19,889 bases of DNA from positions 1-19,889 of the forward strand of contig JBHIAT010000056.1 in the NCBI GenBank assembly GCA_046758705.1, given 5' to 3'. The position numbers and the translations under genes are program-made. A model generated the notes under the pieces. The model worked only from the letters and a program-made list of their open reading frames with translations. It was not told the origin of the DNA and ran no database searches. The stretch is from Candidatus Bipolaricaulia bacterium. Its GTDB lineage: Bacteria > Bipolaricaulota > Bipolaricaulia > JBHIAT01. This document shows, one piece after another, positions 1 to 19,889 of this stretch; the first letter of the stretch is position 1, and each line of letters opens with the position of its first letter.

Positions 1-51
1 GATCGCCCAAAAGGGAGACAAAATTCCTTGCGATACTTCAACTACAGTCCA

Positions 52-1008
52 CTAGGTCGTCGGAGCCATCTCGGGTCGGACAGTGAGCTGTGTTCTCTTT
101 CCCCGTCTCAGGATCACTAACTCGTAATCTCGCTCGACCGGGTTCTCATCCAGAAATCGATGGAGATCGTCGATATCCTCCACCGGACTCCCGGCGATGC
201 TGAGAATAATATCTCGGTCCCGCAGCCCCGCCTGTTTTGCCGGGCTCCCGCGCCCAACCTCCATGACCATCACCCCGCTCTCCTGTTCGATCCCCAGATC
301 CCACTTCACCTGACGGAGCAGCGGCCACCGCTGGGCCGAGATCCCCAGATATCCCCGGGACACCACCCCGTGGGTGATCAGCATTCCGCTCACCCGTTTT
401 GCCGTGTTCGCCGGGATGGCGAAGCAGATCCCCTGAGCGTATTGGATAATGGCAGTGTTGATCCCGATCACCTCGCCTCGGGCGTTGACCAGGGGCCCGC
501 CGGAGCTGCCGGGGTTAAGCGCCGCGTCGGTCTGGATGATGTTCTCGATCAAGCGCCCGGTCTGGGTCCTGAGCGACCGACCCAGGGCGCTGATCACCCC
601 GGCGGTGGCGGTGGACTGGAAACCGAGCGGGTTGCCGATCGCCACCACCAGTTGGCCGACCCGAAGCGATCCGGAATCGCCCAACTCCGCCGTCGGCAGA
701 TCGCTCTGGGAGACGCGGACCACCGCCAGATCGGTGTGCGGATCCTCACCGACGAGCTTCCCACGGAACGACCGTCCGTCGTTCAGGTTGACCTCGATCT
801 GTCCGACCTGATGCACCACGTGGCTGTTGGTCAATACGTATCCGTCGGGTGTGATGACCGTTCCGGAGCCCTTCCCCTGGCGTTGGGATCCCTGCCGCCC
901 TCCGGCCTGGACCACATCGATGTTGACCACCGCCGGGCTGATCTGCTCGGTGACACCCACCACCACCTGAGAGTAGGCATCTAACGCTCTGGCTTCTGTA
1001 TCATCCAT
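52..1008 (-). CDS. HtrA/DegP-family trypsin-like serine protease with one C-terminal PDZ domain; no obvious signal peptide or TM anchor
   Basis: Catalytic triad contexts LTNSHVV, DLAVV and NPGSSGGPL; GSGTVI and IGNPLG motifs; IQTDAA; PDZ motifs GYLGI and GSPAKQAGLRDRDIIL. Confidence 0.93.
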   Translation of the reverse strand: MDDTEARALDAYSQVVVGVTEQISPAVVNIDVVQAGGRQGSQRQGKGSGTVITPDGYVLTNSHVVHQVGQIEVNLNDGRSFRGKLVGEDPHTDLAVVRVSQSDLPTAELGDSGSLRVGQLVVAIGNPLGFQSTATAGVISALGRSLRTQTGRLIENIIQTDAALNPGSSGGPLVNARGEVIGINTAIIQYAQGICFAIPANTAKRVSGMLITHGVVSRGYLGISAQRWPLLRQVKWDLGIEQESGVMVMEVGRGSPAKQAGLRDRDIILSIAGSPVEDIDDLHRFLDENPVERDYELVILRRGKRTQLTVRPEMAPTT

Positions 1009-1063
1009 GATGATCGATCATTCTGTCCCCATCTGACGGGGAACGTCTCCCCTCCTTTACAGC

Positions 1064-1735
1064 TCAACCGAGCAACAGCCGTTGAGCCCAGATGGCCACC
1101 GGAGCGATGATCCGCCCCAACAGGCCGAGCCACAACAGCGCGAAGATGATCAGAAAGCCGAACGGCTCGATCCGGGCCATGAATATCTTTCCCTCTGGTG
1201 GCAGAAAGTAGTTCAGGATGCGGGAGCCGTCCAGTGGAGGGATGGGGATCAAGTTGAACACGCCGAGGATGACGTTGATGATCACGAACCACCCCAAAAG
1301 CAACGCTAGCGCCTCCAGGCTGTTGGTGGCAACCTCCCCCCCCAAGGAGTCCGGAGAGAACGGGGAGCGGATCGCAGCCCTGATGAACCGCCAGATGAGC
1401 GCACCCAGCAAGGCCATGATACCGTTCATCGCCGGTCCGGCGAACGCCACCAGCAGCATCCCCTGATATGGCTTCTTGAAATGCCGCGGATCGATGGGTA
1501 CCGGCTTGGCCCACCCGAAGATCACACCCCCGAAGATCGCCAGCAAGGCCGGCAGGATGATCGTTCCGAATGGGTCAATATGGGGGATCGGATTGAGTGT
1601 CAGCCGGCCCTGGCGCCTGGCGGTGGGATCGCCGAGTCGGTAGGCCACCCAGGCATGAGCGTACTCGTGAAACACGACCGCCCCGAGGATCGCAATGAAC
1701 TGCAGGATAATCACCAGTACTCTCTCAACATTCAT
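1064..1735 (-). CDS. Site-2 protease family (M50) intramembrane metalloprotease
   Basis: HExxH (FHEYAHA), AGP motif and FNLIPIPPLDG; several hydrophobic segments; SD-like GGAGG upstream of ATG. Confidence 0.93.
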   Translation of the reverse strand: MNVERVLVIILQFIAILGAVVFHEYAHAWVAYRLGDPTARRQGRLTLNPIPHIDPFGTIILPALLAIFGGVIFGWAKPVPIDPRHFKKPYQGMLLVAFAGPAMNGIMALLGALIWRFIRAAIRSPFSPDSLGGEVATNSLEALALLLGWFVIINVILGVFNLIPIPPLDGSRILNYFLPPEGKIFMARIEPFGFLIIFALLWLGLLGRIIAPVAIWAQRLLLG

Positions 1736-1759
1736 GGGCCGTGCCTCCCCACTCTCCTC

Positions 1760-3511
1760 TCAGCTCAGTTGAGACTCCTCGACCGGTTCCGGGGCCACAG
1801 TGAGCGTCCGCTCCCGGGTGAGGATGACCGCCCCCGGCTTCGCTCCCTTCGGCTTTCTCAGATACTTCACCTGGGTATAGCTCACCTCAGCCCAGGTCGC
1901 ATTCCGGGCCTTCGAGTGGTAGGCGGCGAGCGCAGCCGCTTTATGGAGCACCGTATCCGGGACCCGTTCCGGTTGGTTGTTCGTCTTGAGGATCACGTGA
2001 GCCCCGGGGACACCGCGCGCGTGGAACCAGTAATCGGTCCGTGCCGCCTCCCGGATCAGCCGATCGTTCTGCCGGCCGTTGCGCCCGACCAGAACCGGGT
2101 ATCCGTCCAGCGAATACCTGCGCGGTTGCGACCGGATCCCCTGAGTTCGATCTCGACGGCGTAATCCGACAGCGCCTTCCACTTCCCGATACCCCTGCTC
2201 GCGGAGTTCATCGGCGATCTCCTCTAAATCTGCGACCCACTCCGCCTGGGACAGGTGATGGGTCACCTCCCTCAGGTAAGTCAGTTCGGCCTCTAACTCC
2301 TGTTGGCGTTTCGCCAGTTTCACCGCCCCCCGCTTCAGCTTCTTGTACCTGCGATAGTACCTCTGGGCGTTCTGCTTGGAGGACAACCTGGGATCGAGCG
2401 AGATGGTCCGACTCCCACCCGCTTCAGCGAACAGATCCTCGACCTCGACCTCTCGGACTCCCGCCTCGATCCGATCGAGGTGCGTCAGGATGAGATCGCC
2501 GGCCTCCCGGTAGCGCTCGTACTCAAGCGCCTGGCTGCGGTCTGCTTCGACCCGTTCCAGTGCCCGTTCAACCTTGTTCACCTGACGAACTACGAATCTA
2601 TCAAGCGAATGGCGCAATGCCTCAAACCGCTCTCGCCCCCCGGCCCGATTGTGATATTCGTCCAGAGTGGCGGACGGTCCGTTTCGTCCGGCCGCCTCCA
2701 GGTTCTCAGCTCGGTAGCCAGCGAGTTCGAATGGCGCCACGGCGATCGGAGCACCGTCAGGGTCCCGGTACAGGGTCGGTTGATACGCACCGCGTCTGAT
2801 CCGATCGAAGAGCCCCGCAAACGCGCGCCACAGCTCAGCCTGTTCCTCATCCGAGAGTGAGTCGGTCGATCTGGAGGGCGGAATGTCTGCTTGTAGGGGG
2901 ATCTCTTTGGCCAGTTGGGGACCGATCCCCTGGATCCTAGCGAAGAGGGTCCGCCATACCTTCTCCTCGCCGCCAAGCAGTTGTTGAAATCCCGCCTCAT
3001 CGATCGTCATCGGGTTACGCTTCCCTTGGGAGGGCGGTGGTTGGTACGGTGCGCCCGGGATCAACGACCGGGGCGGACCGGTCCCCTGACGCATCGCTCC
3101 CAGGATTTGGCCGTCCGCGGTCCGCAGGATCACGTTGCTGTTTCTGCCCATCAGCTCAGCGCTCAGGATCCTCGTGCCCTCCCCCGCCCGCACATGAAGT
3201 TCGACGATTCGCTCGAGTTCAGGCTGTTCTATCCCGATCAAGATCCCGTTCCTTAAGTGCTTTCTTAGCAACATACAGAAGTTCGGTGGCCGTTCGGGGT
3301 TGTCAGGCGAACTCTCGGTCAGGTGGATGCGGGAGTTCTGCGAAACTGAGATCAACAGCCGATACGTTTTCAAATTCCACAGATGCAGGATCAGCAGACC
3401 CGCCTCCGGCTGGTAGATCTTGCGAATCCTCCCGCCGAGCAGTGTCGCCTTCAGTTCATCGACGATACACGCCAACATGACGCCGTCCAGGCCCATCCCC
3501 ATTACCATCAC
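1760..3511 (-). CDS. rqcH: Ribosome quality-control factor RqcH (NFACT/FbpA family); start may be 3511, 3508, 3502 or 3496
   Basis: NFACT-N (LLGGRIRKIYQP, FCMLLRKHL, ELER, ELMGRNSN), HhH (IQGIGPQLAKE), coiled coil with NAQRYYRRYKKLK, NFACT-R (VGRNGRQND, WFHARGVPGAHV, KPKGAKPGAV). Confidence 0.95.
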   Translation of the reverse strand: MMVMGMGLDGVMLACIVDELKATLLGGRIRKIYQPEAGLLILHLWNLKTYRLLISVSQNSRIHLTESSPDNPERPPNFCMLLRKHLRNGILIGIEQPELERIVELHVRAGEGTRILSAELMGRNSNVILRTADGQILGAMRQGTGPPRSLIPGAPYQPPPSQGKRNPMTIDEAGFQQLLGGEEKVWRTLFARIQGIGPQLAKEIPLQADIPPSRSTDSLSDEEQAELWRAFAGLFDRIRRGAYQPTLYRDPDGAPIAVAPFELAGYRAENLEAAGRNGPSATLDEYHNRAGGRERFEALRHSLDRFVVRQVNKVERALERVEADRSQALEYERYREAGDLILTHLDRIEAGVREVEVEDLFAEAGGSRTISLDPRLSSKQNAQRYYRRYKKLKRGAVKLAKRQQELEAELTYLREVTHHLSQAEWVADLEEIADELREQGYREVEGAVGLRRRDRTQGIRSQPRRYSLDGYPVLVGRNGRQNDRLIREAARTDYWFHARGVPGAHVILKTNNQPERVPDTVLHKAAALAAYHSKARNATWAEVSYTQVKYLRKPKGAKPGAVILTRERTLTVAPEPVEESQLS

Positions 3512-3517
3512 CGAATC

Positions 3518-3546
3518 AGTATACCAGTCGCAGTATACACCAACAA
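3518..3546 (-). promoter_or_regulatory. Putative sigma70 promoter of rqcH: TTGTTG-N17-TATACT with extended -10 TG
   Basis: Minus strand: -35 at 3546-3541, TGG at 3526-3524, -10 at 3523-3518; the GTG at 3511 follows 6 nt later. Confidence 0.6.
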
Positions 3547-3688
3547 GGTTTTCCAGACGTGAGGGGAACGTCGGGGCGGTGGGACACGGCCTCCCTGGGA
3601 ATCGGAGGTGCCATGATCATCACCGGCGTGGCACTGGCCGGTTGGGGCCGTTAATGCGGCGGACGATCTACGAACCGAAATTCGACGG

Positions 3689-3991
3689 TCAGCAACCGCA
3701 GCTCTTTGCCAGGTTCGGGCTGAAGATCGTGAACCCCTCACCCTGCTCACTGACGATGTAATCCAGGTGCGTTCCCTCGAGTTGCTCCTCGGAGTCGGGG
3801 TCCACGTGAATCTTGATGCCGTTGTATTCACGCAACGCTTCCTCAGAGAACGAGTTCTGCTTGAGCTCGGCCATGAGCCCCTCACAACCACACCCGGCAC
3901 GCTGAACAGCGAGCGCCAACACGTCGCGATCTGCCTCTTCCATCATCTTCTTGATCTTTTCAGCAGCCACGTCGGTGATCGTGATCTGCAT
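3689..3991 (-). CDS. HesB/IscA (A-type Fe-S carrier)-like protein, 100 aa
   Basis: MQITITDVAAEKIK start, GCGCEG, IHVDPDS..LEGTHLDY, GEGFTIFSPN, C-terminal SCGC. Start set at ATG 3991 (GAGGT SD and promoter upstream) instead of the ORF-track 4105. Confidence 0.85.
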   Translation of the reverse strand: MQITITDVAAEKIKKMMEEADRDVLALAVQRAGCGCEGLMAELKQNSFSEEALREYNGIKIHVDPDSEEQLEGTHLDYIVSEQGEGFTIFSPNLAKSCGC

Positions 3992-4025
3992 AATGGATTG
4001 ATACCTCACTTCTACATTCAGTGTT

Positions 4026-4054
4026 AGTGTACCACAATCCGAGGCCTTCATCAA
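4026..4054 (-). promoter_or_regulatory. Putative sigma70 promoter of the HesB-like gene: TTGATG-N17-TACACT with extended -10 TG
   Basis: Exact 17-nt spacing, TGG before TACACT, about 35 nt upstream of ATG 3991. Confidence 0.6.
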
Positions 4055-4140
4055 CCTCGGAGTTGTGGACCCGTTCACCCGCTCGATGATCCACAACTGT
4101 TCCATTCCTAAATTTATATTAACGGATCGAACGACGGATT

Positions 4141-4160
4141 CCTGTAAGGTTTATTACAGG
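4141..4160. promoter_or_regulatory. Perfect palindrome CCTGTAA-N6-TTACAGG, candidate operator
   Basis: 7-bp perfect arms, 8 nt upstream of the -35 of the qng1-tgt promoter. Confidence 0.4.
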
Positions 4161-4168
4161 TGAATCGG

Positions 4169-4197
4169 TTGTACCGAGCCCTCGTTTTCTCTATACT
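4169..4197 (+). promoter_or_regulatory. Putative sigma70 promoter of qng1-tgt: TTGTAC-N17-TATACT
   Basis: Near-consensus hexamers with 17-nt spacer; the -10 ends 14 nt before ATG 4212. Confidence 0.65.
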
Positions 4198-4211
4198 GAT
4201 GGACGATAGAG

Positions 4212-5174
4212 ATGAACGAGACGCTGGGTGTGCTGGAGACGACCCGAGGGGTGGTCGAGCGCAGTCAGGCAGTCCGGATCGACCGCCGGGCGATCGACGA
4301 ATTCTGCCACCGGCTTTTGGCGGAGAACGTTCGCCCTCCCGAATGGGATCGAAACGTCCATTTCTACGACGGCGGGGCACGAACCGTCCAGTACCTGTTG
4401 ATCCTGGACAGCTTGAACTTCTGCTTCTGGGGCGAGCCGCGATGGCGCATCGTTTACCGCGGACAGCCTCTGGACGGCTACAACGCGTTGGCCGCCGCGT
4501 TGAAGCGGACCGTCGAGGACGGGGGTCCAATCCTGGACGCAGATTATCTGTCTAAGATCTCCAAGATCGAGCTCCGCCATATCTTCCAAGCTGAGGGGAA
4601 GATTGCGCTGTTCGAGGAGCGGCTTCGTATCCTTCAGGAGACCGGTTCGGTTCTGGCCGAACGGTACGATGGAAGCGCAACCTCCCTGGTCGAGCGGGCC
4701 GGGGAACGAGCGGTCAAGCTCGCCAGGCGGTTGGTCGCTGACTTCCCGTCGTTTCGGGATGAAGCCAGTCATCGGGGCGATCGGGTCCGCTTCTACAAAC
4801 GGGCGCAGATCTTCGCCGCCGACCTCCACGGCGCCTTCGACGGGAAGGCGTGGGGGACGTTCACCGATCTGGATCGGCTCACCTGTTTTGCTGACTACAA
4901 GCTTCCGCAAGTGTTACGTCATCTGGGGATCTTGATCTATGCTCCGCCGCTTGCCGCGGCGGTGGATCTCAGGGAACCGATCGAGGCGGGGAGCGAGGTG
5001 GAGGTTGAGATTCGGGCGAGCACCGTCTGGGCGGTGGAGTGGATCCGAAGAGGTTTAGCGACGTCAGGCATGCCGCTGAAGTCGGTTGAGATCGATTGGA
5101 TCCTGTGGCATCTGGGGCAGCAGGAGCGGTTTAACAAGCACCCTCACCATCGGACGTTAACGGTTTTTTACTGA
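4212..5174 (+). CDS. qng1: Queuosine-nucleotide N-glycosylase/hydrolase (Q salvage protein, DUF2419/C9orf64/QNG1 family)
   Basis: Family motifs LDSLNFCFW, F.SFRD, FYKRAQIFAADL, LTCFADYKLPQVL, EVEIRA, EIDWILW and terminal HHRTLTVFY; adjacent to tgt. Confidence 0.93.
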   Translation: MNETLGVLETTRGVVERSQAVRIDRRAIDEFCHRLLAENVRPPEWDRNVHFYDGGARTVQYLLILDSLNFCFWGEPRWRIVYRGQPLDGYNALAAALKRTVEDGGPILDADYLSKISKIELRHIFQAEGKIALFEERLRILQETGSVLAERYDGSATSLVERAGERAVKLARRLVADFPSFRDEASHRGDRVRFYKRAQIFAADLHGAFDGKAWGTFTDLDRLTCFADYKLPQVLRHLGILIYAPPLAAAVDLREPIEAGSEVEVEIRASTVWAVEWIRRGLATSGMPLKSVEIDWILWHLGQQERFNKHPHHRTLTVFY

Positions 5175-5184
5175 GGGTATAGGG

Positions 5185-6396
5185 ATGAGCGTTTCATTCG
5201 AGGTCACCGTAAACGATCGGCAGACAGCGGCCCGGACCGGGGTTCTCAACACACCGCACGGGACGGTCGAGACCCCGGCGTTCGTGGCCGTCGCAACCCA
5301 GGCGACGGTCAAAGCGCTAACGCCGGACGATCTCAGAGGGGTCAGCATTCAGATGACCATTGCCAACACCTACCATCTCCATCTTCAGCCCGGTGAAGCG
5401 CGCGTCGCCGGACTCGGCGGATTGCACCGATTCATGGGCTGGGATGGCCCGATGATGACCGATTCGGGCGGGTTCCAGATCTTCAGTCTCGGGGCGGGGA
5501 AGGAACACGGCGTCGGGAAGATCGCCTCGATCTTCCCAGAAGAGTCCGGCCCAGGGGAACCGGAACCAGACTCCCCTAAAGAAAACTCGCTCGTCGAGAT
5601 CGATGAGGACGGGGTCGAATTCCGATCTCATCTGGACGGCTCGCTCCACCGTTTCACCCCGGAGGGCGTGATCGACATACAGAGACAGTTGGGAGCGGAC
5701 ATCATCCTGGTTTTGGATGAGTGCACTTCCCCACTCCACGACCGTGCGTATACGGAGCGGGCGATGGAGCGGACCCATCGCTGGGCGGTCCGCACCCTCC
5801 AGTACTATGCATCGCAGGCGAACAGGGATCAGGCACTGTTCGGGATCGTCCAGGGCGGCGCGTTCCAGGATCTGCGCGACAGCAGCGCACAGTTCATCGG
5901 GGGATTGGGGTTCGACGGGCTTGCGATCGGCGGCTCACTTGGTAAGTCGAAACGAGATATGCACCGCATCCTGGAGTGGACGGTGCCCCGGCTCCCGGAG
6001 CGATTGCCGAGACACCTGCTGGGGATCGGGGAGGTCGAGGATATCTTTGAGATCGTCTCCCGCGGGATCGATACGTTCGACTGCGCTGCCCCAACCCGAC
6101 TGGCACGCAACGGCGCCCTGTTCGTCCGAGGCGAGAAGAAATTTCGGATCCAGATCCTAAACGCCCGGTTCAAGGACGATCCAAGACCGGTAGCAGAAGG
6201 GTGTCGTTGCTACACCTGCCGGCATCTCTCTAGAGCCTATCTTCATCATCTGTTCAATGCCAACGAGTTGCTCTCCTACCGGCTGGCCAGCCTGCACAAC
6301 CTCTATTTCATCGAGTCGTTGGTGGAGGAGATCCGGGAGGCGATCCGGGCGGGATGGTTCTCGGAGCTCAGGCAGCGGTGGCTCGGTCATGCTTAA
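5185..6396 (+). CDS. tgt: tRNA-guanine(34) transglycosylase
   Basis: ARTG..TPHG..TP.F, ANTYHL, TDSGGFQ, LDEC, GIVQGG, HLLGIG, DTFDC..PTR.ARNG, Zn site CRCYTC...HNL. Confidence 0.97.
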   Translation: MSVSFEVTVNDRQTAARTGVLNTPHGTVETPAFVAVATQATVKALTPDDLRGVSIQMTIANTYHLHLQPGEARVAGLGGLHRFMGWDGPMMTDSGGFQIFSLGAGKEHGVGKIASIFPEESGPGEPEPDSPKENSLVEIDEDGVEFRSHLDGSLHRFTPEGVIDIQRQLGADIILVLDECTSPLHDRAYTERAMERTHRWAVRTLQYYASQANRDQALFGIVQGGAFQDLRDSSAQFIGGLGFDGLAIGGSLGKSKRDMHRILEWTVPRLPERLPRHLLGIGEVEDIFEIVSRGIDTFDCAAPTRLARNGALFVRGEKKFRIQILNARFKDDPRPVAEGCRCYTCRHLSRAYLHHLFNANELLSYRLASLHNLYFIESLVEEIREAIRAGWFSELRQRWLGHA

Positions 6397-6457
6397 GATA
6401 GGATGAGATAAGGTGATAGAACCGGGAGCACCCAATGCCGAAACTGTCTATAGTTAA

Positions 6458-7585
6458 TTAGAAAGTCATTTCGCAAATGGGACATACAAGATGCGCTAGG
6501 AACCAGTGGCCGTCAGCGTGTGTATCGAGGGGGACAAGTTTCAGCAAAATTGTGGTATTACATTGAGGGCATCGAAATTCGGTTAGGCCGATATCGCTCC
6601 ATAATTTTAGCGCATCTTCTCGACCTTCGACGATCGAAAGAGTATAAGAGCTCGTTTTTTGGTCTTTAGTGTCATTTTCCCCCAGAAAGGCGGGAATCTT
6701 GCTCAATATTTCGCGTGGTGTATGATAACCCTTTACCATGTAGTCATTTGCTCCTAACTCGAGGCCTTTTTGAATATTTTCTTTTTCTCCTAATACTGAA
6801 AGGATAATAACCGGTATTTCTTTTGTTGTCTCATCAGCACGAATTTTTTTCAAGAGCTCAAACCCATGAAGCTTCGGGAGTATTAAATCCAATAGAATTA
6901 AATCTGGTTTCTCGGTCTTGACCAGTTCCCATCCGCTTGCACCATCTTCAGCTTCTAGAATATTGTAACCACCACTTTCAAGAACATCATGGTAGATACG
7001 CCGAAATTCTACCTGATCCTCAACAATTAAAATGGTGCCTGTGTGGATGGTGGTCATATCTTTTCTCCCTAAATCGTCGGTTCTCTGGATGAGCGGGGGG
7101 CTCGCCTTCTCTTCCTCCTCCTGCTCGCTAGGGCCTCCGGGTTGCATTCGACCGTAAGTGATCTCGATCGTCCGTTTGATCTCGGCGGGGTTGGAGACAC
7201 ACGGCCGGATCTCCATACCTGTCTGGGTCCGCAGATCATCGATGATCATGACGTCATTGGGGTCGCCGATCGCCACCACCAGCCGATTGTCGGTCTTTTG
7301 GATCGGCATCACGATCTTGCGGCGGGCAAAATCCTCATCGACCAGCGCCAGCACGTCGCGATCGATCTCCTGGTCGGCCAGCTGGATATATTCATAGCCC
7401 GTCTGCTGGTAGAGCGCCTCGCCGAGATCCTCCTCGGTGATGAACCCTTCCTCGATCAGGATCTCACCGAGCAGTTTCCCAGTCCTATCGACCCTCTGAA
7501 TCGCCAGTGCCTTGTTTAATTCGGTCTCGGAGAGCACCCCCATGTCGATCAGGATCTCTCCCAAGCGATCACCGAACCTTGGCAC
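6458..7585 (-). CDS. MshEN/T2SSE_N + receiver (REC) + C-terminal CPxC...CPxC putative Zn-ribbon protein (copy A)
   Basis: RLGEILIDMGVLSETELNKALAIQ...LLGEILIEEGFITEEDLGEALYQQ; LVVAIGDP.D; REC motifs [31 protein letters not shown]; tail CPQC...CPIC. GTG start with AGAGGTG SD. Confidence 0.88.
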   Translation of the reverse strand: MPRFGDRLGEILIDMGVLSETELNKALAIQRVDRTGKLLGEILIEEGFITEEDLGEALYQQTGYEYIQLADQEIDRDVLALVDEDFARRKIVMPIQKTDNRLVVAIGDPNDVMIIDDLRTQTGMEIRPCVSNPAEIKRTIEITYGRMQPGGPSEQEEEEKASPPLIQRTDDLGRKDMTTIHTGTILIVEDQVEFRRIYHDVLESGGYNILEAEDGASGWELVKTEKPDLILLDLILPKLHGFELLKKIRADETTKEIPVIILSVLGEKENIQKGLELGANDYMVKGYHTPREILSKIPAFLGENDTKDQKTSSYTLSIVEGREDALKLWSDIGLTEFRCPQCNTTILLKLVPLDTHADGHWFLAHLVCPICEMTF

Positions 7586-7589
7586 CGTG

Positions 7590-7614
7590 GGTCACCTCTT
7601 TGTGATTATACCCC
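7590..7614 (-). promoter_or_regulatory. -10 box TATAAT plus SD AGAGGTG upstream of copy A
   Basis: Minus strand ggggTATAATcacaaAGAGGTGacccacgGTG; no convincing -35. Confidence 0.5.
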
Positions 7615-7662
7615 ACTTCACTACGTTCCGAACGGGACAGTACGCCGAAATCGTCCATATAC

Positions 7663-7737
7663 TTAGAAAGACCTTTTACAACTTGGACACGGACATACAA
7701 AATGTCCTGAGAACCAGTGGCCGTTAGCGCGTGTATT
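7663..7737 (-). pseudogene. Out-of-frame remnant of the Zn-ribbon tail of copy B
   Basis: Translates NTRANGHWFSGHFVCPCPSCKRSF*, aligning with DTHADGHWFLAHLVCPICEMTF* of copy A; begins 2 nt after the copy B stop codon. Confidence 0.85.
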
Positions 7738-7739
7738 GC

Positions 7740-8651
7740 CTAGGAGCTCATTTCTTTGATATCAGCTTTTGCCAGCAAGGCATGAATCTTGCTCAATATT
7801 TCACGTGGTGTATAATAACCCTTTACTATGTAGTCATCTGCTCCCAACTCGAGACCCTTTTGAATATCTTCTTTTTCTCCTAATATTGAAAGGATAATAA
7901 CCGGTATTTCTTTTGTTGCTTCATCAGCACGGATTTTTCCCAACAACTTAAATCCATGAAGCTTCGGGAGTATCAAATCCAATAGAATTAAATCTGGTTT
8001 CTTGGTCTTGACCAGTTCCCATCCGCTTTCATTATCTTTAGCTTCTAAAACCTCGTAACCATCACTTACAAAAACATCACGATAAATACGCCGAAATTTT
8101 GCCTGATCCTCAACAATTAAAATAGTGCCTGTGTGGATTGTCTTCGAACCTTTTCTCTTTGATAAAGAGGGCCTCTCCTCTCCCTCCTGCTCGCCAGGGC
8201 TTCTGAGGTGCGTTCGACCGTAAGCGACCTCGATCTTCCGTTTGATCTCGGCGGGGCTGGAGACACGCGGCCGGATCTCCATACCTGTCTGGGTCCGCAG
8301 ATCATCGATGATCCTGATGTCGGTGGGGTCGCCGATCGCCACCACCAGCCGATTGTCGGTCTTTTGGATCGGCATCACGATCTTGCGGCGGGCAAAATCC
8401 TCATCGACCAGCGCCAGCACGTCGCGATCGATCTCCTGGTCGGCCAGCTGGATATATTCATAGCCCGTCTGCTGGTAGAGCGCCTCGCCGAGATCCTCCT
8501 CGGTGATGAACCCTTCCTCGATCAGGATCTCACCGAGCAGTTTCCCAGTCCTATCGACCCTCTGAATCGCCAGTGCCTTGTTTAATTCGGTCTCAGAGAG
8601 CATTCCCATGTCGACCAGGATCTCTCCCAAGCGATCACCGAACCTCGGCAC
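7740..8651 (-). CDS. MshEN/T2SSE_N + REC protein (copy B), C-terminally truncated relative to copy A
   Basis: Same architecture and near-identical N-terminal half; REC motifs intact (VED, LLDL, ILS, IVK); ends EMSS*. Confidence 0.86.
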   Translation of the reverse strand: MPRFGDRLGEILVDMGMLSETELNKALAIQRVDRTGKLLGEILIEEGFITEEDLGEALYQQTGYEYIQLADQEIDRDVLALVDEDFARRKIVMPIQKTDNRLVVAIGDPTDIRIIDDLRTQTGMEIRPRVSSPAEIKRKIEVAYGRTHLRSPGEQEGEERPSLSKRKGSKTIHTGTILIVEDQAKFRRIYRDVFVSDGYEVLEAKDNESGWELVKTKKPDLILLDLILPKLHGFKLLGKIRADEATKEIPVIILSILGEKEDIQKGLELGADDYIVKGYYTPREILSKIHALLAKADIKEMSS

Positions 8652-8655
8652 CGTG

Positions 8656-8680
8656 GGTCACCTCTTTGTGATTATACCCC
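8656..8680 (-). promoter_or_regulatory. -10 box TATAAT plus SD upstream of copy B (identical to copy A)
   Basis: ATTATA at 8671-8676 on the plus strand, inside the identical 42-nt upstream block. Confidence 0.5.
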
Positions 8681-8719
8681 ACTTCACTACGTTTTAGGTG
8701 GCCTTCCACCGCCTGAGGC

Positions 8720-9799
8720 TCAAGTTAAAGGAATTTTAAAAACAAAATGGCTGCCCTTTCCCACAGCAGACGTTACAGAGATATCTCCGTGCTGCAACGA
8801 CATAAACTTTTTTGTGATATACAAGCCAAGACCCGAACCGATCTCTGGCGTTGGACCGCCACTGAAAATTTGATCTCTCTTAAACAGTCTATTTAATAAA
8901 TCGTCGGACATTCCCTCGCCTGTGTCTACCACTTCAACGATACCAAAACCGTTTTCGCTTTTTGTTCTGATCGTAATGGACCCCTCATGAGTGAATTTGA
9001 CTGCGTTATCGATCACATTGCTTAATGCGTCAACCATTTTATCTTTATCAGCAAGAACAATAATTTCATAATCCATTTCCTCAAGATTCAGGGCTAACCC
9101 TTTTTTCTTGATTCTCTCGTGATAATCTCGAACGGCTAGATCTATCACTTCCTTTAATCTGACGGGTCGTATATCGACCGATATCACGCTGCGTTCAATT
9201 CTTGATACATTCAACAGATCAGAAATCAAGCGGTAATTCTTGGAGCTTATCTCCCGCATCTCCTGGAGATATTGCTTTTGTTGGGCCGTTAAATCACCCG
9301 TCAATCCCATAAGCATGTTATCTATATATCCCATGATGAGTGCCACTGGGGTTCTCATTTGATGAGACACCATGGAAACGAAATCGCTTTTCATCTGGTC
9401 AATTTGCTTGCGCTCGATGGCATAGCGCATGGCGCGCACCAGCAAGTGGTTATCCAACTGCCCCTTGACCAGATAGTCTTGCGCACCCTCATGCACGGTC
9501 TTTACGGCGAGCGCCTCATCGTCGAGACCGGTCAACACCACGATCGGCACGCCTGATGCTTGCGTGTGCACCTCGGCGAACGTGTCAATTCCCTGGCTGT
9601 CCGGCAGCGACAGATCCAACAGGACCACGTTGATCCCTCCCTCGGCCAGGTGCTCCAGCCCGATCGAGAGCCGGTCGGCGCACTCCAGATCGAACGAAGC
9701 ACCCTTCACTTCGGCCAGCACCTCCCTGATCAGTCGAGCGTCTCCGGGATTGTCCTCGATCAGCAGGACTTTGATGTGTTCGTTCTCCATTTCATTCAC
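8720..9799 (-). CDS. Cytoplasmic hybrid histidine kinase, REC-HisKA-HATPase (start 9799 GTG or 9790 ATG)
   Basis: REC motifs [27 protein letters not shown]-box VSHQMRTP; N-box [10 protein letters not shown]1 DTGEG; G2 GSGLGL. Confidence 0.92.
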
Positions 9800-10241
9800 C
9801 CGGTGGCAGTTTCACGATGGTCAACCAAAAGTCTTCGATGGACCTCACCACCATGATGAACTGCTCGAAGTCAACCGGCTTGGTGATGTAGCAGTTCGCA
9901 TTGAGGCCATAGGCTTTGATGACATCCTCTTCAGCCTGCGAAGTGGTCAGGACGACCACAGGGATTCGCTTCAGCTTTCCATCGACTTTGATCTCCGCTA
10001 GCACCTCACGCCCGTCTTTCTTCGGCAGGTTCAAATCGAGCAGGATGAGGTCTGGGCGAGGCGCATCGGCATACTTGCCCTCTCGACGCAGGAACGCCAT
10101 GGCTTCCACCCCATCCTTGACCACATTCAGGTTGTTGCGCATCTTGCTATCATTGAAGCCTTCTATCGTCAGGCGTACGTCACCGGGGTTGTCCTCCACC
10201 AGCAAAATCTCAACAGATCTACCGATCTTTCCAATATTCAT
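9792..10241 (-). CDS. Single-domain response regulator, Rcp1 (phytochrome-associated) type
   Basis: [42 protein letters not shown] and the C-terminal FWLTIVKLP typical of Rcp1-type receivers; ATGA overlap with the upstream kinase. Confidence 0.93.
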
Positions 10242-12112
10242 GGTCGTTCACCTCCTCTGTCCGAGATCGTGAAGTGGAATGTCGAGCCCTGACCCGATTC
10301 TGACTCCACCCAGATACGTCCACCGTGGCGTTCGACAATCTTCTTGCAGATCGCCAGGCCGATGCCGGTGCCCGGATACTCCCCCTTGCCGTGCAGACGT
10401 TGGAAGATAACGAAGATGCGTTCGGCATACTTCGGATCAATGCCAATGCCGTTATCACGGATGGAGAACAGCCACTCGCCATTTTTGTGCTCCGCCCCGA
10501 CATGGATTTCTGGCGGCTTATCGCTCTGAAACTTGATGGCGTTACCGATCAAGTTCTGAAACAACTGACCCAGTTGCAGGTTGTCGGTCATCACCGTCGG
10601 CAGGGGATCGTGAATCACCCGCGTACCACTCTCCTCAATCACCATTTGTAGATTGGCGAGTGCCTGGTCCAGTACCGTCTCACAGTCGGTCGGCTCGAAA
10701 TCCTTACCCTGCGTGCCCACCCGGGAATAGGCCAACAAGTCATTGATCAGCCTCTGCATCCTGTTTGAGCCATCCACGGCATAGGCGATGAACTCGTCGG
10801 CATCGGAATCGAGTTGGCCTTCGTAGCGCTTTGCCAACAGCTGCGTATAGCTCGCCACCATACGCAGCGGCTCTTGCAGGTCGTGCGAGGCGACATAGGC
10901 AAACTGTTCCAGGTCGGCATTGGAACGCGCCAACTCCACGTTCGCCCGCTGCAGCTGTTCGGCACGCCGGCGCAACTGGGCCTCTTTCTCGGACAGGGCG
11001 GCCGCCATGGTGTTGAATTCGCGTGCCAGCAAGCCCAGTTCGTCGCCGGAGGTTTCGGGCAGACGCAGCTCCAGTTGACCCCGGCCGAAGCGCATCGCCC
11101 CGGCCTGCAGGGCCAACACCGGGCGGGTGATGGTTCTCGCCAGTCCAAGAGCCACGGCCGACGCAGTCAGCAGCGACAGACTGCCGGTCAACAGTATCGT
11201 ATTGCCGAAGGCGCGGGAGGGCTCGACCGCCTCGGCTTGGTCAATCTTGACGACGAGGCAGATTTGACGTTCGGCCAGCCAGCGGTAAACGGCAATCACG
11301 GGGACCCCACGATAGTCGTCGGCGAAGACCACCCCACTGTTACCCACCAGACAGCGGTCAACCGTCTCGGTGCGAATGGCGCGCCGGAGCACCGCAGGAT
11401 CGGAGATGAAGCGTGGCTGGGTGATGAGCAGGTTCAAAATGTTCACCAAGAAAGCGTCGTCGGTCTGGTGCAGGTCGGTGCGCCGATTGATCATGGTGTT
11501 CATCACGTCCAGGTTCAGACGCCCGGTGAGGACACCCAGCAATCTCCCATTAGCCGACCTGATCGGCGCAGAGACGGTCATCGCCGGGGCCCGGAGCGTG
11601 CGGGAATAATAGGGGTTCAGGACGTACGGGCCGTTCCGACCGTTGATAAAGTAGGGGCGCTTATCTTTGAATCTGCCCTCTTCACTCGCATCGGTGGCGA
11701 CAATGACCTTTCCGACTTCAGGCTCGATCACCAGCAACGCCATAAATCCACGCTCCTCGCCGACCCAGGGCTGTAGTTCTTCCACCACACGGTCATGGGC
11801 GGCCTGGATTGCAGCCGGGAACAACAATATGGAGTTTGACCCGACAGTTAGGGTGATCAGCTCCTTGTGAAAACGGAGTGAGGCCGCCAGGCTGACAATG
11901 TCCGACAACCGCGCCTCGACCCAGCTATTCAACGCGGCCTGCTTTTCAATGGCCACCGAAAGCAAATCCGAGACGGTGGCCACCTGGAGCGCGGCACGAC
12001 CGCTGTTATAGGAAAGCACGCTCACGCCCGCCAGGAGCCCGGCGGCGAACAGGACAAAGACCAGCGTTACCTTGGGAGTTATGTTCAGTCGCAGCTTTAT
12101 CGCCGATTTCAC
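10238..12112 (-). CDS. Membrane sensor histidine kinase: TM-dCache-TM-HAMP-HisKA-HATPase with Cph1/BphP-type transmitter (exact start uncertain)
   Basis: Two hydrophobic segments; Cache motifs RPYF..G...PYYS, VSAPI, DYRG; HAMP ITRP...[62 protein letters not shown]. Confidence 0.93.
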
Positions 12113-12259
12113 TCCTTTACGTTTTACTCTAAGGGTCGCCCCTAAATCTGTTGACGGTCACGGCCATCTGGTATCTATTATGCCCCATGTACAAATTTTT
12201 GGGTACGATGTTACCATCCTCGCTCATTTTTGGGAGGGCTCCTGAGCGGTGCTGTTGGA

Positions 12260-12288
12260 TTGAAATCGTTGCTGATCTTCGCTATAAT
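12260..12288 (+). promoter_or_regulatory. Putative sigma70 promoter: TTGAAA-N17-TATAAT
   Basis: Near-consensus with 17-nt spacer; the -10 ends 24 nt upstream of ATG 12313. Confidence 0.75.
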
Positions 12289-12312
12289 AGCGGCAAAGGG
12301 CAATAGAACGGC

Positions 12313-13095
12313 ATGAAGATTATCAGTTTCTCGGATTATCACGGGGCTTATGAAGGTTTAGAGGATTTTGAAAGAGTTATCCGGGAAGAATCCCCCGACC
12401 TTCTCCTATTCATCGGAGATATTCTCAAATTCGGCCCTCGAGCTCTGGAATTTGCATCCGCCCGGGAAGAGAAACGGGTCCCAGATCGGGATCGGGCCGA
12501 GGTCGTCGCCGATGTCGCGACGGCGGCCGAGGAATACCGGCGGTTCTTCGAGTTTCTAGGTGGACTGGACCGGTTTGTCGCCGTCATCCCCGGTAACCTC
12601 GATGCACCGAGGCGACAGTTCATGCGGGCCGCAACGGAGTTCGAGGGGGAATACAACAACCTTCGTGTCCTCCACCGCCTCTGGGCACAGGTTGGGGACG
12701 TTGCGATCGCCGGGTTCGGAGGGGAGATCAGCGAGAATGTCAATGAAGATTACTTCATGGACATCTACCCCCGGGAAGCGGTCCTATATTGTTTCAAAGA
12801 GATGGGCTACGTCGATGCGCCCCACAAGTTGTTCATGATTCACACCCCGCCTGTTGCCCGGTTCGGAGCGGTCGAGACCCACAAGCTCGGCTCCAGGATC
12901 GTCAACCAGGTGATCGAGCGCTACGGTCCGGAGTTGGTGCTGGTGGCCCACGATCACAAAGCGAAGGGGCAGACAAACGTCGGGGAGGCCGTGGTCGTGA
13001 ACGCCGGACCGTTTAACGAAGGGAATTACGCGGTGATCGAACGGCTGCGCCCGGAGACCACGGTCAGTTTTAGAAACTTGAAACGGGATAGGTAA
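12313..13095 (+). CDS. Calcineurin-like metallophosphoesterase
   Basis: Five family motifs: SDYHG, GDIL, PGNLD, IHTPP, AHDH. Confidence 0.85.
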   Translation: MKIISFSDYHGAYEGLEDFERVIREESPDLLLFIGDILKFGPRALEFASAREEKRVPDRDRAEVVADVATAAEEYRRFFEFLGGLDRFVAVIPGNLDAPRRQFMRAATEFEGEYNNLRVLHRLWAQVGDVAIAGFGGEISENVNEDYFMDIYPREAVLYCFKEMGYVDAPHKLFMIHTPPVARFGAVETHKLGSRIVNQVIERYGPELVLVAHDHKAKGQTNVGEAVVVNAGPFNEGNYAVIERLRPETTVSFRNLKRDR

Positions 13096-13110
13096 ACGAA
13101 AAGAAGATAG

Positions 13111-14478
13111 ATGAGCATATTGCTGGACGACTTCACCGCCATCACGCTCGCCGATGGGCGAGATCCTGTGGAACACATCTCGATCGCCATCGAGGGAGGA
13201 GAGATCCAGGCCATCGGATCCCCTGATACATTCGACCGTGGGGTGTTTGGCCGTGTTCTCGACGGGGAGGACAAGCTGGTCATGCCTGGTTTCGTCAACG
13301 CCCACACCCATCTGCCGATGGTGCTTTTGCGGGGCTACGCCGATGATCTACCGCTCAAGCCGTGGTTGGAGGAGAAGATCTGGCCGGTTGAGGCGGAGCT
13401 GAGGGCCGCGGGTACGGAGACGATCTACTGGGGGGCGTTGCTCGGGATCGCGGAGATGATCCGCTCGGGGACGACCGCGTGCGCCGATATGTACTATCAC
13501 ATGGACCAGGTCGCTCGAGCTGTCAAGGAAAGCGGGGTACGGGCGTTGCTCTCCTGGGGGATCATCGCTCCGGAGATTGACGAGCAGGTCGAGCGACAAC
13601 TGGAAACGGCGGCCGACTTTGTGAACGAGTGGGACGGAGCGGCCGGTGGGCGGATCGCAACCGCTCTCAGTCCCCATGCCCCTTATACTTGTGATGCCGA
13701 GGTATGGAGGCGAGCGGTCGAGCTGGCCGAGGCGGACGGAGTGCGTATCCACACCCATCTGGCGGAGACGGCCGGTGAGGTGGAAGATGCCTATCGAAAC
13801 TGGGGGGTGAGTCCGGTCCGCTATCTGGAGGATCTCGGTGTGTTCACCACGTCGGTCTTAGCTGCCCACTGTGTTCACGTCAGCGACGAGGATATCGAGC
13901 GGCTGGTGGCTCATGGCGTCCACGTCGTTCACAATCCCGGCAGCAATCTGAAGCTCGCTTCCGGGATCGCTCCGGTGGAACGGATGCTGGAGGCGGGAAT
14001 CCCCGTGGCGCTCGGGACCGATGGGGCGGCCTCGAACAACAACCTGGATATGCTCGAAGAGATCCGGCTCGCCTCATTGTTGCAAAAGGTCGAGCATCAA
14101 GATCCCACCGCCGTCTCCGCCCTGGAGGCGTTGAGAATGGGAACGGTGCACGGCGCGATGGCGCTGGGCTTTGATGGGATCGGTGTGCTGGAGGCGGGCG
14201 GGCCGGCCGACCTGATCATCGTCGACCTGGATCAGGTCCATATGGTCCCCAACTATAACCTGATCTCGAATCTCGTCTATGCGGGCCAAAGCGGCGATGT
14301 CGAGACGGTCATCGTCAACGGCCAGATCGTGATGGAGGCAAGGAAGATTTTGACATTTGATGAGGCACAGGTGAAGCGTCGAGTGAGACAACTGAGCAAA
14401 CGGTATCGAGATCGCTCAGCAGGAGGAGGGAACGAATTCAAAGATGTTAGCCAAAGAGCGCAAAGCGGAATTGATTGA
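13111..14478 (+). CDS. mtaD: Amidohydrolase, 5'-methylthioadenosine/S-adenosylhomocysteine deaminase (MtaD/DadD)-like
   Basis: [65 protein letters not shown]. Substrate is inferred from the subfamily. Confidence 0.8.
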
Positions 14479-14713
14479 ACACTACGGCGGTCATGAGACG
14501 GACACCGGATCGGCGGAGGTCCAGATCGCTATCTTGACAGAACGGATCAACGAGGTGACCGAGCATCTAAAGATCCATAAGAAGGACTTTCATTCTCAAA
14601 GAGGGCTGCAGAAGATGGTGGGGAGGCGAAGACGGTTGCTAAAGTACTTAAAACGGCAAAATATCGATCGTTATCGCGAACTGATCGATGAGCTTGGCAT
14701 CAGAGGGGTATAG
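14444..14713 (+). CDS. rpsO: 30S ribosomal protein S15
   Basis: [37 protein letters not shown]; strong AGGAGG SD; directly upstream of pnp. Confidence 0.98.
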
Positions 14714-14725
14714 AGGGGTATTGAA

Positions 14726-17134: not shown

Positions 17135-17148
17135 GGAACAGAAACTCG

Positions 17149-18447
17149 ATGGAAACGATTTATCAGAATTGCTACCGCGAGACCCTCGTCAACGGGATGG
17201 ATCTCCTTCTGGAACAGATGCCTTATGCTCACTCGGTCAGCCTCGGTGTTTGGTTGCGGACCGGCAGCCGGGATGAACCCAAACGGCGGAACGGCATCAC
17301 CCACTTCATCGAGCATATGCTGTTCAAGGGCACACACAAGCGCACCGCGTTCCAGATCTCCGAGGAGATCGATGCCATCGGGGGGATCATCAACGCGGTG
17401 ACCGCCCGGGAATACGTTTGCTACTACGTCGACTGCCTCCCCCACCACCTCGGGGTGGCCCTGGATGTGCTGAGCGATCTCGTCCAAAACCCGCGGTTCC
17501 TCTCCGCAGAGATCGAGCGGGAGAAGGGAGTGGTTCTCGAGGAGATCCGTATGGGGAAAGAGGATCCCAAGGATGAGATCTTCGATCTGTTCGCCGGTCA
17601 CCTGTGGCAGAATGGACATCCGCTCTCGATCCCCGTGGTAGGAGATGAACAGATGGTGAAGGAGTTGACTCGGGAGGAGTTGGTACACCAATTCCATCGC
17701 CATTATCATCCTGGCAACATGGTCTTGGCCGCCGCCGGGAACCTGGATGAACGGAGGTTCCTGGAGCTGGCTGAGGCGCGGTTCGGCGATCTGAGGCGTA
17801 GGGGGCAGGCCGACAACGAGGTCGATCGCACTCCACCCCAGTCGAACGGCGGGTTCCACCTGGTGGGGCGGCGTAATGCCCAGCAGACCCATATCTGTCT
17901 GGGGACCAAGGGAATACGTCACGGGGATGAGCGACGGTTCGCCCTAGGGATCATGAACACCGTCCTCGGAGGCGGGATGAGCTCCAGGCTGTTCAAGCGG
18001 ATCCGGGAGGAAACCGGTCTCGCCTACGCGGTGTTCAGCACGATCCACCATTACTCCGATACCGGTCTGTTTCTCATCTACGCAGGCACGGATCCCGACA
18101 ACGTCAAGCAAGTTATCGAGATCTCGTTGGAGGAGATCGATCGCCTCAAGGAGCAGACCATCTCCCCGGAGACCCTGAGACTCGCCAAGGAGAAGATCAA
18201 GGGGAACCTGTTGCTCGGCCTGGAGAGCAGCCACGCCCGGATGACCCGGCTCGGGATCGCCGAGGTCTATGAGGAGCGTCCGCTGGAGATCGATGAGTGG
18301 ATCGTGAAGATCGACGAGGTCGACCGGGAGGCGGTGCACCAGGTTTCCGAGGAGTTGTTCGGATCGAATCATCTGACGCTGACGGTCATCACGCCCCGGG
18401 GGAAGTCTCACTCCGACCTCTCCGATCTTCTGGCCGATCGGACTTGA
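17149..18447 (+). CDS. M16 (pitrilysin) family zinc peptidase
   Basis: Inverted motif HFIEH (HxxEHMLFKGT), REKGVVLEEI, LGGGMSSRLF..IREETGLAY; such peptidases commonly sit after rpsO-pnp. Confidence 0.94.
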   Translation: METIYQNCYRETLVNGMDLLLEQMPYAHSVSLGVWLRTGSRDEPKRRNGITHFIEHMLFKGTHKRTAFQISEEIDAIGGIINAVTAREYVCYYVDCLPHHLGVALDVLSDLVQNPRFLSAEIEREKGVVLEEIRMGKEDPKDEIFDLFAGHLWQNGHPLSIPVVGDEQMVKELTREELVHQFHRHYHPGNMVLAAAGNLDERRFLELAEARFGDLRRRGQADNEVDRTPPQSNGGFHLVGRRNAQQTHICLGTKGIRHGDERRFALGIMNTVLGGGMSSRLFKRIREETGLAYAVFSTIHHYSDTGLFLIYAGTDPDNVKQVIEISLEEIDRLKEQTISPETLRLAKEKIKGNLLLGLESSHARMTRLGIAEVYEERPLEIDEWIVKIDEVDREAVHQVSEELFGSNHLTLTVITPRGKSHSDLSDLLADRT

Positions 18448-18472
18448 AAAACCGTTCTAAGGGTGCTAAATT
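18444..18472 (+). promoter_or_regulatory. Putative sigma70 promoter of glmM: TTGAAA-N17-TAAATT with extended -10 TG
   Basis: 17-nt spacer, TG at 18464-18465. Confidence 0.6.
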
Positions 18473-18551
18473 TTGGTTCGGGCAACCGTCCAGATTGCCT
18501 TCGTCATCTCCTTAGAGATCGAAACAGGAGGTCTTCATTCAGGTAGGGAGA

Positions 18552-19886: not shown

Positions 19887-19889
19887 ACT

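Follow-up and report, generated by a model that had tools for sequence, protein, structure and literature searches.

The locus presented here lies on contig JBHIAT010000056.1 of a Candidatus Bipolaricaulia assembly (GCA_046758705.1); the whole stretch that was analysed, positions 1 to 19,889 of the forward strand (19,889 nucleotides, nt), is called the window below. It carries two genes concerned with queuosine (Q), which is unique among tRNA modifications in being traded between cells as a micronutrient. The first one, qng1, occupies 4212-5174 (320 amino acids, aa) and the second, tgt, occupies 5185-6396 (403 aa), both on the plus strand and 10 nt apart. The features of the locus are the following:

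4106..4211, plus strand: presumed promoter region, intergenic, between a divergent IscA/HesB-like gene (minus strand) and qng1.
4212..5174, plus strand: qng1, queuosine-5'-phosphate N-glycosylase/hydrolase (DUF2419, PF10343), 320 aa, from the profile match and the match to the structure of Sphaerobacter thermophilus Qng1 (StQng1).
5175..5184, plus strand: spacer of 10 nt; a GAGGG word resembling a Shine-Dalgarno sequence overlaps the stop codon of qng1 (read directly).
5185..6396, plus strand: tgt, bacterial-type tRNA-guanine(34) transglycosylase (TGT), Qng1-associated variant subfamily, 403 aa, from TIGR00430, the structure model and Foldseek.
5494..5589, plus strand: subfamily-specific insertion of the TGT, residues ~104-135, core H-G-V-G-K-I-A-x-I-F-P, from alignments.
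5929..5952, plus strand: remodelled substrate-pocket loop of the TGT, G249-G-S-L-G-K-S-K256 (Zymomonas mobilis equivalent G229-G-L-A-V-G-E-G).

Qng1 matches the Pfam family Q_salvage/DUF2419 (PF10343) with 303.1 bits (cut-off 25) over profile positions 4-285 of 285. It aligns from end to end with the StQng1 structures 7U07 and 7UK3 (E-value = 5e-107, 361 bits), and human QNG1 matches it with 180 bits. Family and length are common to the window protein, the S. thermophilus enzyme (7U07, 7UK3, 7U1O, 7U91) and human QNG1, while the identity with StQng1, which belongs to a different phylum, is roughly 60% by eye from the alignment. StQng1 has been structurally and enzymatically characterised and releases queuine (q) from queuosine-5'-monophosphate (Q-5'MP); the residues named for it are the nucleophile D231, K199, D298, W302, I203, F75, Y232 and the C-terminal Y323 (PMC9881137; papers are cited here by PMC number and for the portions of their text that were available). 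All eight active-site residues are kept in the window protein with an offset of -3 (F72, K196, I200, D228, Y229, D295, W299, Y320). The Asp nucleophile of the helix-hairpin-helix (HhH) motif, D228, and K196 align to D231 and K199, and Y320 is the very last residue, matching the C-terminal Tyr of StQng1. An alignment of 16 bacterial homologues shows no variation in these columns. Bacterial DUF2419 proteins are functional, as the S. thermophilus gene complements an S. pombe mutant (Zallot 2014, cited in PMC4425180 and PMC9881137). A predicted role of the window Qng1 in releasing queuine from Q-5'MP, and more weakly from Q, is well supported by this conservation.

The second protein matches Pfam TGT (PF01702) at 449 bits and passes the NCBIfam equivalog TIGR00430 'tRNA guanosine(34) transglycosylase Tgt' with 477.1 bits (cut-off 306.75). 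Both identities and the gap at 5175-5184 agree with the first-pass annotation, which had named a DUF2419/QNG1 gene 10 nt upstream of tgt. The enzyme is bacterial-type, with 333 bits to the Z. mobilis TGT versus 223 to human QTRT1. Its AlphaFold2 model (predicted local distance difference test, pLDDT, 89; predicted template-modelling score, pTM, 0.89) is matched by Foldseek to the Z. mobilis TGT with a template-modelling score (TM) of 0.95, a root-mean-square deviation of 1.6 Å and 41% identity. Bacterial TGTs are defined by the catalytic Asp102 and Asp280, the substrate-binding Asp156 and Gln203 and a zinc site of the type CxCxxC...H. Mapped from the alignment, D93, D178, Q223 and D299 of the window TGT correspond to Z. 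mobilis D102, D156, Q203 and D280, and we take their catalytic roles and that of the zinc site to be the same. These four residues and the zinc motif C340, C342, C345 and H355 are invariant in 50/50 TGTs of the variant subfamily described below. Fold, catalytic Asp, Asp156, Gln203, Cys158 and zinc site are thus common to the window TGT and the canonical, preQ1-inserting enzyme of Z. mobilis.

Compared with that enzyme, the window TGT has a Leu231-Glu235 loop (Z. mobilis numbering) that is one residue shorter and lacks Glu235, and a conserved insertion after TDSGGFQ. The insertion of ~30 aa follows the TDSGGFQ strand, where HMMER splits the matches to the Z. mobilis TGT and human QTRT1, and it is missing from both of these and from the five canonical TGTs compared. 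Within it, H108, G109, V110, G111, K112, A114, F117 and P118 are invariant in 50/50 variant TGTs, and residues 107-131 have a pLDDT <50 in the monomer AlphaFold2 model. Because it is invariant yet modelled with such low confidence, the insertion probably folds only with a partner, which could be tRNA, substrate or the dimer mate. Regarding the loop, the consensus of the variant is GG[SA][LV]G[KRS][SD]K (GGSLGKSK in the window), against GGLAVGEG in Z. mobilis and GGL[GS]VGE in the canonical TGTs examined, the preQ1-type pattern being GGL[AS]VGE. Both hhalign profile-profile alignment and MAFFT put the one-residue gap at Leu231, and by that alignment position 233 remains Leu/Val, Gly234 is kept and Glu235 is replaced by Lys/Arg. 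Of the 50 variant TGTs, 48 have Lys/Arg at the Glu235 position and one has Glu, the residue of the last being unlisted; Cys158 is retained in all 50. An alternative gap placement would yield Val233Gly, and the residue at position 233 is thus ambiguous from sequence. The ungapped reading with Val233Gly was dropped on account of the profile-profile gap at Leu231 and of the loop GGSVGRSK seen in one of the families (f4). In the Z. mobilis enzyme, the Leu231/Ala232 peptide flips between guanine- and preQ1-binding states, is held by Glu235 and reads the 7-substituent of the base (PMC3660597). The variant TGTs alter exactly this switch, a change of the kind that would be expected for a change of substrate.

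This signature of loop and insertion was present in 33 of the 33 assessable qng1-linked TGTs (three others were truncated or masked) and in 20/20 TGTs taken from relatives of the source genome. Other Qng1-bearing genomes provided five canonical TGTs, all without the signature, and in G001 and G002 this TGT adjoins a canonical queA. The Deltaproteobacteria genome G001 has both kinds, a canonical TGT beside queA and a variant one beside qng1, and the pair looks like subfunctionalised paralogues. In its pocket loop and its conserved, unmodelled insertion the variant is unlike all characterised TGTs, which would also be compatible with a pair that handles another 7-deazaguanine or modified base, or another nucleic-acid target, instead of queuine at tRNA position 34. 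We consider this distinctly unlikely, since the window Qng1 is a full-length StQng1 orthologue that retains all residues contacting queuosine, the TGT scores above the cut-off of the tRNA-G34 Tgt equivalog and reaches only 33.8 bits with the DpdA model (cut-off 200), and no dpd-type genes were found in the window by family profiles. Separately, a third TGT-like class was observed in Dictyobacter and Thermogemmatispora (L094, L095), with 302-308 bits to Pfam TGT and 33% identity to the window TGT. It has the loop GGWPLD, carries [YD]CTH replacing ECT[SA], and coexists with a canonical TGT.

The assembly to which the window belongs (as contig C56) comprises 3.70 Mb in 319 contigs (completeness 93.86%, contamination 4.69%), and the genome was surveyed by family profiles for TGT, Qng1, QueA, QueC, QueD, QueF, QueG, QueH, carriers and nucleoside hydrolases. 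It holds one TGT gene and one Qng1 gene. QueC gave only a 20-bit partial match in the genome, and QueF and QueH were not found there by the profile search. A 46-bit 'QueG' match was rejected as a reductive-dehalogenase-like protein (109 bits to the reductive-dehalogenase model, 48 to the QueG equivalog with its cut-off of 200), and a PTPS match was rejected as QueD (43 bits, equivalog cut-off 89). Among the carriers looked for in the genome, QPTR/YhhQ, QueT, an ECF S-component and a ureide-permease-type carrier (UPS) were not found, and no Q kinase was identified. Three IU-type nucleoside hydrolase genes are present, any of which may be QueK-like. The assembly contains tRNAs Tyr-GUA, Asp-GUC and His-GUG, and the Asn tRNA was not assembled. 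In the window itself, none of the 15 other open reading frames (ORFs) scanned with family profiles belongs to the Q pathway or to a known Q-precursor transporter family, which bears out the earlier observation that no que or transporter gene lies there. A PTPS-family gene on contig C73 adjoins a homologue of the IscB-like RNA-guided endonucleases (L006:164-1411, plus strand; 134.6 bits, cut-off 175).

The genome also contains one QueA-family gene, located on contig C118 (L001:1444-2613, plus strand), which encodes a protein of 389 aa and overlaps the stop codon of an upstream SDR gene; the contig is ordinary in GC content and tetranucleotide use. The protein reaches 258 bits with the Pfam family and fails both NCBIfam equivalogs (182 bits with a cut-off of 324 and 157 with a cut-off of 267). 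It is 63% identical to the second QueA of Thermogemmatispora (L102), which coexists with a canonical QueA there, and only 29-35% identical to canonical QueAs. No QueA-family gene was found in any of 40 relatives of the same class. We read this gene as a putative divergent paralogue rather than as evidence for a preQ1 route. The first-pass annotation had proposed to look in the genome for the absence of que genes; QueC, QueF, QueG, QueH and a canonical QueA are indeed missing, and this paralogue is the part of the expectation that did not hold. Its presence, together with the QueL route that exists in other bacteria (PMC11130926), would agree with indirect salvage, in which a lyase turns queuine to preQ1, the TGT inserts preQ1, and the QueA-like paralogue and a reductase mature it again. 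Such a scheme is nevertheless very improbable in our judgement. The 40 relatives, 27 of them with the Qng1/TGT pair, have no QueA-family gene, the protein resembles the Thermogemmatispora paralogue far more than any canonical QueA, and neither QueG nor QueH was found in the genome (QueL being outside the scope of the search).

The genomes nearest to the source genome are related to it at class level only, and both proteins find their closest named homologues in Candidatus Bipolaricaulota/Acetothermia metagenome-assembled genomes (MAGs). Among the 40 relatives, 27 have a TGT and all 27 of these have Qng1, with one more genome having Qng1 only. In 16 of these 27 the genes adjoin each other directly, and in a further one they are separated by ~1 kb. 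All QueC matches in the relatives were partial PP-loop matches of 38 bits or less and were rejected, so that a real QueC, like a QueA-family gene, was found in 0/40; this includes the single-contig genomes G009 and G013 (96-99% complete). In a sample of 184 genomes of the phylum, 125 encode both proteins, 10 encode a TGT without Qng1, 11 encode Qng1 without a TGT, and 38 have neither gene; 29 of these 38 make up three whole families. The cross-tabulation is given without a statistic, since related genomes are not independent. The 21 discordant genomes belong to families that normally have both genes, and most are incomplete MAGs (56-92% complete). Across the phylum sample, qng1 and tgt are jointly inherited and jointly lost. 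In the same sample the variant TGT is never accompanied by a canonical queA. One of the few large genomes of the phylum (G097, 3.7 Mb, contigs C77 and C166) has two Qng1 copies, one of which adjoins a variant tgt.

The distribution also bears on a possible assembly artefact, in which a canonical pathway would lie in the unassembled ~6% of the genome and the pair would be an accessory salvage branch. The completeness of 93.86% in 319 contigs leaves some room for it, and G001 is an example of a genome with both the canonical and the variant route. Several unlinked loci (queC/D/E/F, tgt-queA, queG or queH) would however all need to be missing, and QueA and a real QueC are absent from all 40 relatives, the two nearly complete single-contig ones included. 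A second, canonical-like TGT was seen as a weak fragment in only 2 of the 184 phylum genomes. We therefore hold this explanation to be extremely improbable.

Beyond the phylum, Qng1 relatives occur in at least 556 species-representative genomes (pattern scan), and 3428 of 8000 scored protein clusters match Qng1 at E<=1e-3, which makes the earlier description of QNG1 as sporadic in bacteria outdated. Linkage was surveyed in the best 80 Qng1 loci of these at least 556 genomes, which come from Desulfobacterales and other Thermodesulfobacteriota, several Chloroflexota lineages, Bipolaricaulota and a few others. In 36 of these 80 best loci qng1 is followed directly by a tgt gene on its own strand, and in none does tgt lie upstream or on the opposite strand; five of the 44 remaining loci have <1.1 kb of downstream sequence and are not judgeable for tgt. 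The survey of qng1-tgt linkage that had been suggested at first reading thus found the arrangement of the window repeated both in these loci and in the relatives. Clustering of the neighbours over the 80 loci revealed no conserved kinase or transporter near qng1, and tgt was the sole broadly conserved neighbour. Other neighbours reflect lineage-specific synteny, such as an SBP_bac_5/ABC set in 6-8 Desulfobacterales loci. In that set, an SBP_bac_5 solute-binding protein (eight loci) and an ABC permease (six loci) stand near qng1 where tgt is not adjacent, raising the possibility of Q or q uptake (e.g., L036:1528-3681 and L057:491-1450, both minus strand, Desulfobacterales).

Full-length linked variant TGTs show 54-66% identity across phyla, and 54-67% is seen within the phylum. 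Four genomes (G002-G005, reached through L029, L079, L082 and L076) have Qng1 together with canonical TGT, QueA and QueC and without a variant TGT, and three of them (G003-G005) also have QueG. Among the four is a Sphaerobacter sp. MAG with a TGT that carries Leu in place of Cys158. In the Sphaerobacter sp. genome qng1 is not beside tgt, and a canonical-loop TGT, QueA, QueC and QueG are present, unlike in the window genome.

Concerning transcription, a consensus scan of 3600-6800 gave no sigma-70-like promoters and no intrinsic terminators. A weak TTGTAC-17 nt-TATACT word was read directly in 4106..4211 and lies below the threshold of that scan. No riboswitch, preQ1 included, or other RNA family was detected, either at the Rfam gathering thresholds over the whole window or at E<=1 over 3900-4400. 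The earlier placing of both genes behind one promoter is therefore not borne out by the scan, and we infer solely from the 10-nt spacing and the absent terminator that qng1 and tgt may be co-transcribed.

Taken together, these data make it likely, in our view, that the pair is a two-gene module in which Qng1 frees queuine and the variant TGT inserts it directly into tRNA. Direct salvage is the best reading because canonical tailoring genes were not found in the genome, because the two genes co-occur and are lost together, and because the signature is present in every Qng1-associated TGT examined. In the proposed mechanism, Qng1 would hydrolyse Q-5'MP and, less well, Q, releasing queuine, the Q nucleotides coming from imported material or from turnover of the cell's own tRNA. 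The TGT, a predicted homodimer of the bacterial type, would then swap G34 of tRNA-Asp/Asn/His/Tyr for queuine in one step, and Q-tRNA would be formed without QueA or QueG/H. The altered pocket (the short 231-235 loop with Glu235 changed to Lys/Arg), and perhaps the insertion, would make queuine the substrate of the TGT, and Q or q would enter through a transporter. The recycling loop with direct insertion that the first-pass annotation put forward is retained in its core, which is the best supported part. The closed loop does not hold as a complete account: in a genome without a de novo route it must be fed by import of Q or q, and the known importers were not found.

Several points weigh against this module. 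Cys158 is kept, where eukaryotes have Val and Chlamydia trachomatis-type enzymes Leu, and position 233 is Leu/Val and not Gly by profile alignment; the pocket is unlike the known queuine-type solutions, and therefore sequence alone does not predict queuine acceptance. Lys/Arg235 could fix the peptide switch in its guanine-type (NH-exposed) orientation, which presumably would suit preQ0 too. The genome has a QueA-family gene (258 bits with Pfam, below the equivalog cut-offs), and the occurrence of Qng1 in the canonical-pathway genomes G002-G005 means that Qng1 alone does not imply direct insertion of q. The known importer families and a Q kinase were not identified in the genome, which is a MAG of 319 contigs with 4.7% contamination. 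Finally, a qng1-adjacent transporter of an Acidobacteriota bacterium carried preQ0/preQ1 and not Q (PMC11130926).

Some of the same observations would suit an alternative that we regard as unlikely, namely that the pathway ends with the insertion of salvaged preQ1 or preQ0 by the variant TGT, as has been proposed for Bartonella, with Qng1 serving an unrelated clearing or recycling of Q nucleotides. The retained Cys158, the Leu/Val at position 233 in the profile alignment and a Lys/Arg235 that could lock the Leu231/Ala232 peptide in the guanine-type state are in line with it. Bartonella species with only tgt can still use preQ1 (PMC10723273), and preQ0/preQ1 was the cargo of a qng1-adjacent transporter in one case that was tested (PMC11130926). 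On the other hand, this endpoint leaves unexplained why the variant TGT occurs exclusively with Qng1 (53/53 examined), why both genes are lost together in three families and why G001 has an extra canonical TGT-QueA pair; moreover, QueF, QPTR and QueT were not found in the genome.

If queuine is indeed what the variant TGT inserts, a further and more tentative proposal, to which we give less than even credence, is that the Qng1-associated TGTs are a third, independently evolved queuine-inserting kind. Their cassette would have spread between phyla, being able to run parallel to a canonical preQ1 route and being the sole route to Q-tRNA in most Bipolaricaulota. Queuine specificity would then arise from deletion of Leu231, Glu235 to Lys/Arg and an insertion ordered only on binding of tRNA or substrate, and not from the Val233Gly change of eukaryotic and chlamydial enzymes. 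Spread of the cassette is suggested because the cross-phylum identity of the variant TGTs (54-66%) overlaps that within the phylum (54-67%).

Which organisms make queuosine and which scavenge it shapes models of microbial cross-feeding. The locus would add a whole uncultured phylum (Bipolaricaulota/Acetothermia-like) to the obligate scavengers, with the salvage genes inherited or lost as a pair. A natural bacterial TGT family that apparently solves the use of queuine differently would also be a template for the study of preQ1-versus-queuine specificity, and its signature could let annotation split a 'q-type' from a 'preQ1-type' Tgt, which public records name identically.

The remaining genes of the window include HtrA, an M50 peptidase, RqcH, an IscA-like protein, a response regulator/histidine kinase block, a metallophosphoesterase, an amidohydrolase, PNPase, an M16 peptidase and GlmM. 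Positions 6458-7585 and 7740-8651 (minus strand) hold tandem paralogues in which an MshEN (PilB N-terminal-like) domain is joined to a receiver domain. Three more signalling genes occupy 8720-12112, namely a receiver-histidine kinase, a lone receiver and a Cache-HAMP histidine kinase. The PNPase at 14726-17134 (plus strand, 802 aa) carries two S1 domains, at residues 626-695 and 725-790, the second of them C-terminal. The source metagenome is of hydrothermal-vent type by its run labels.

Direct salvage has been defined at the genome level by the de Crecy-Lagard group as the presence of tgt where queA and queG/H are missing. Bacterial TGT (bTGT), Qng1 and QueK have been treated as 'Q salvage signature genes', with similarity and neighbourhood networks (PMC11130926). 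Dataset S3 of the same paper lists Candidatus Acetithermum autotrophicum, a member of the Bipolaricaulota, with FolE1, TGT (H5SRG2) and Qng1 (H5SRG4) only. It lacks QueDEC, QueF, QueA, QueG/H, QueK, QrtT, QueT and QPTR there, a gene content as in the window genome, and H5SRG2 is 60% identical to the window TGT. The concept of bacterial direct queuine salvage, including the genotype in this phylum, was consequently already in print, and the novelty attributed to the locus at first reading was overstated. That genotype is a table row, and neither the pocket variant of the TGT nor the phylum-wide pattern was found described in the portions of the text of PMC11130926 available. The variant signature was likewise not found in the part of the literature on bacterial Qng1, TGT and queuine salvage that was searched, and the TGT subtype is apparently undescribed.

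Among the known systems, C. trachomatis salvages directly by means of a YhhQ/QPTR importer and a q-inserting 'BL-TGT' (Yuan 2019, cited in PMC10723273, PMC11130926 and PMC12301720). Like the window pair, it has a bacterial-type TGT without QueA or QueG/H. In the window genome, in contrast, QPTR is missing, Qng1 would supply q from Q nucleotides and the TGT has an added insertion of ~30 aa. The TGT group of the C. trachomatis type has Gly233 and Leu158 in the available text of PMC12301720, and the window subfamily, with Cys158 and another remodelling of the loop, is set apart from it by this description. The eukaryotic signature of QTRT1, Val158 and Gly233, is not reproduced in the variant TGTs either, which have Cys in 50/50 and Leu/Val at position 233 by hhalign and MAFFT. 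A Z. mobilis TGT with the changes Cys158Val/Val233Gly binds queuine and does not insert it (PMC3660597). Furthermore, a QTRT2-like second subunit was not found in the genome, which has one TGT-family gene. The label 'eukaryote-style' given by the first-pass annotation consequently does not suit an enzyme that is bacterial in type by its bit scores and its TM of 0.95, keeps Cys158 and has no clear Val233Gly. What the window pair would have in common with eukaryotic QTRT1/QTRT2 and QNG1 is the logic of the system, in which a hydrolase supplies free queuine for a transglycosylase to insert, and tailoring enzymes have no part.

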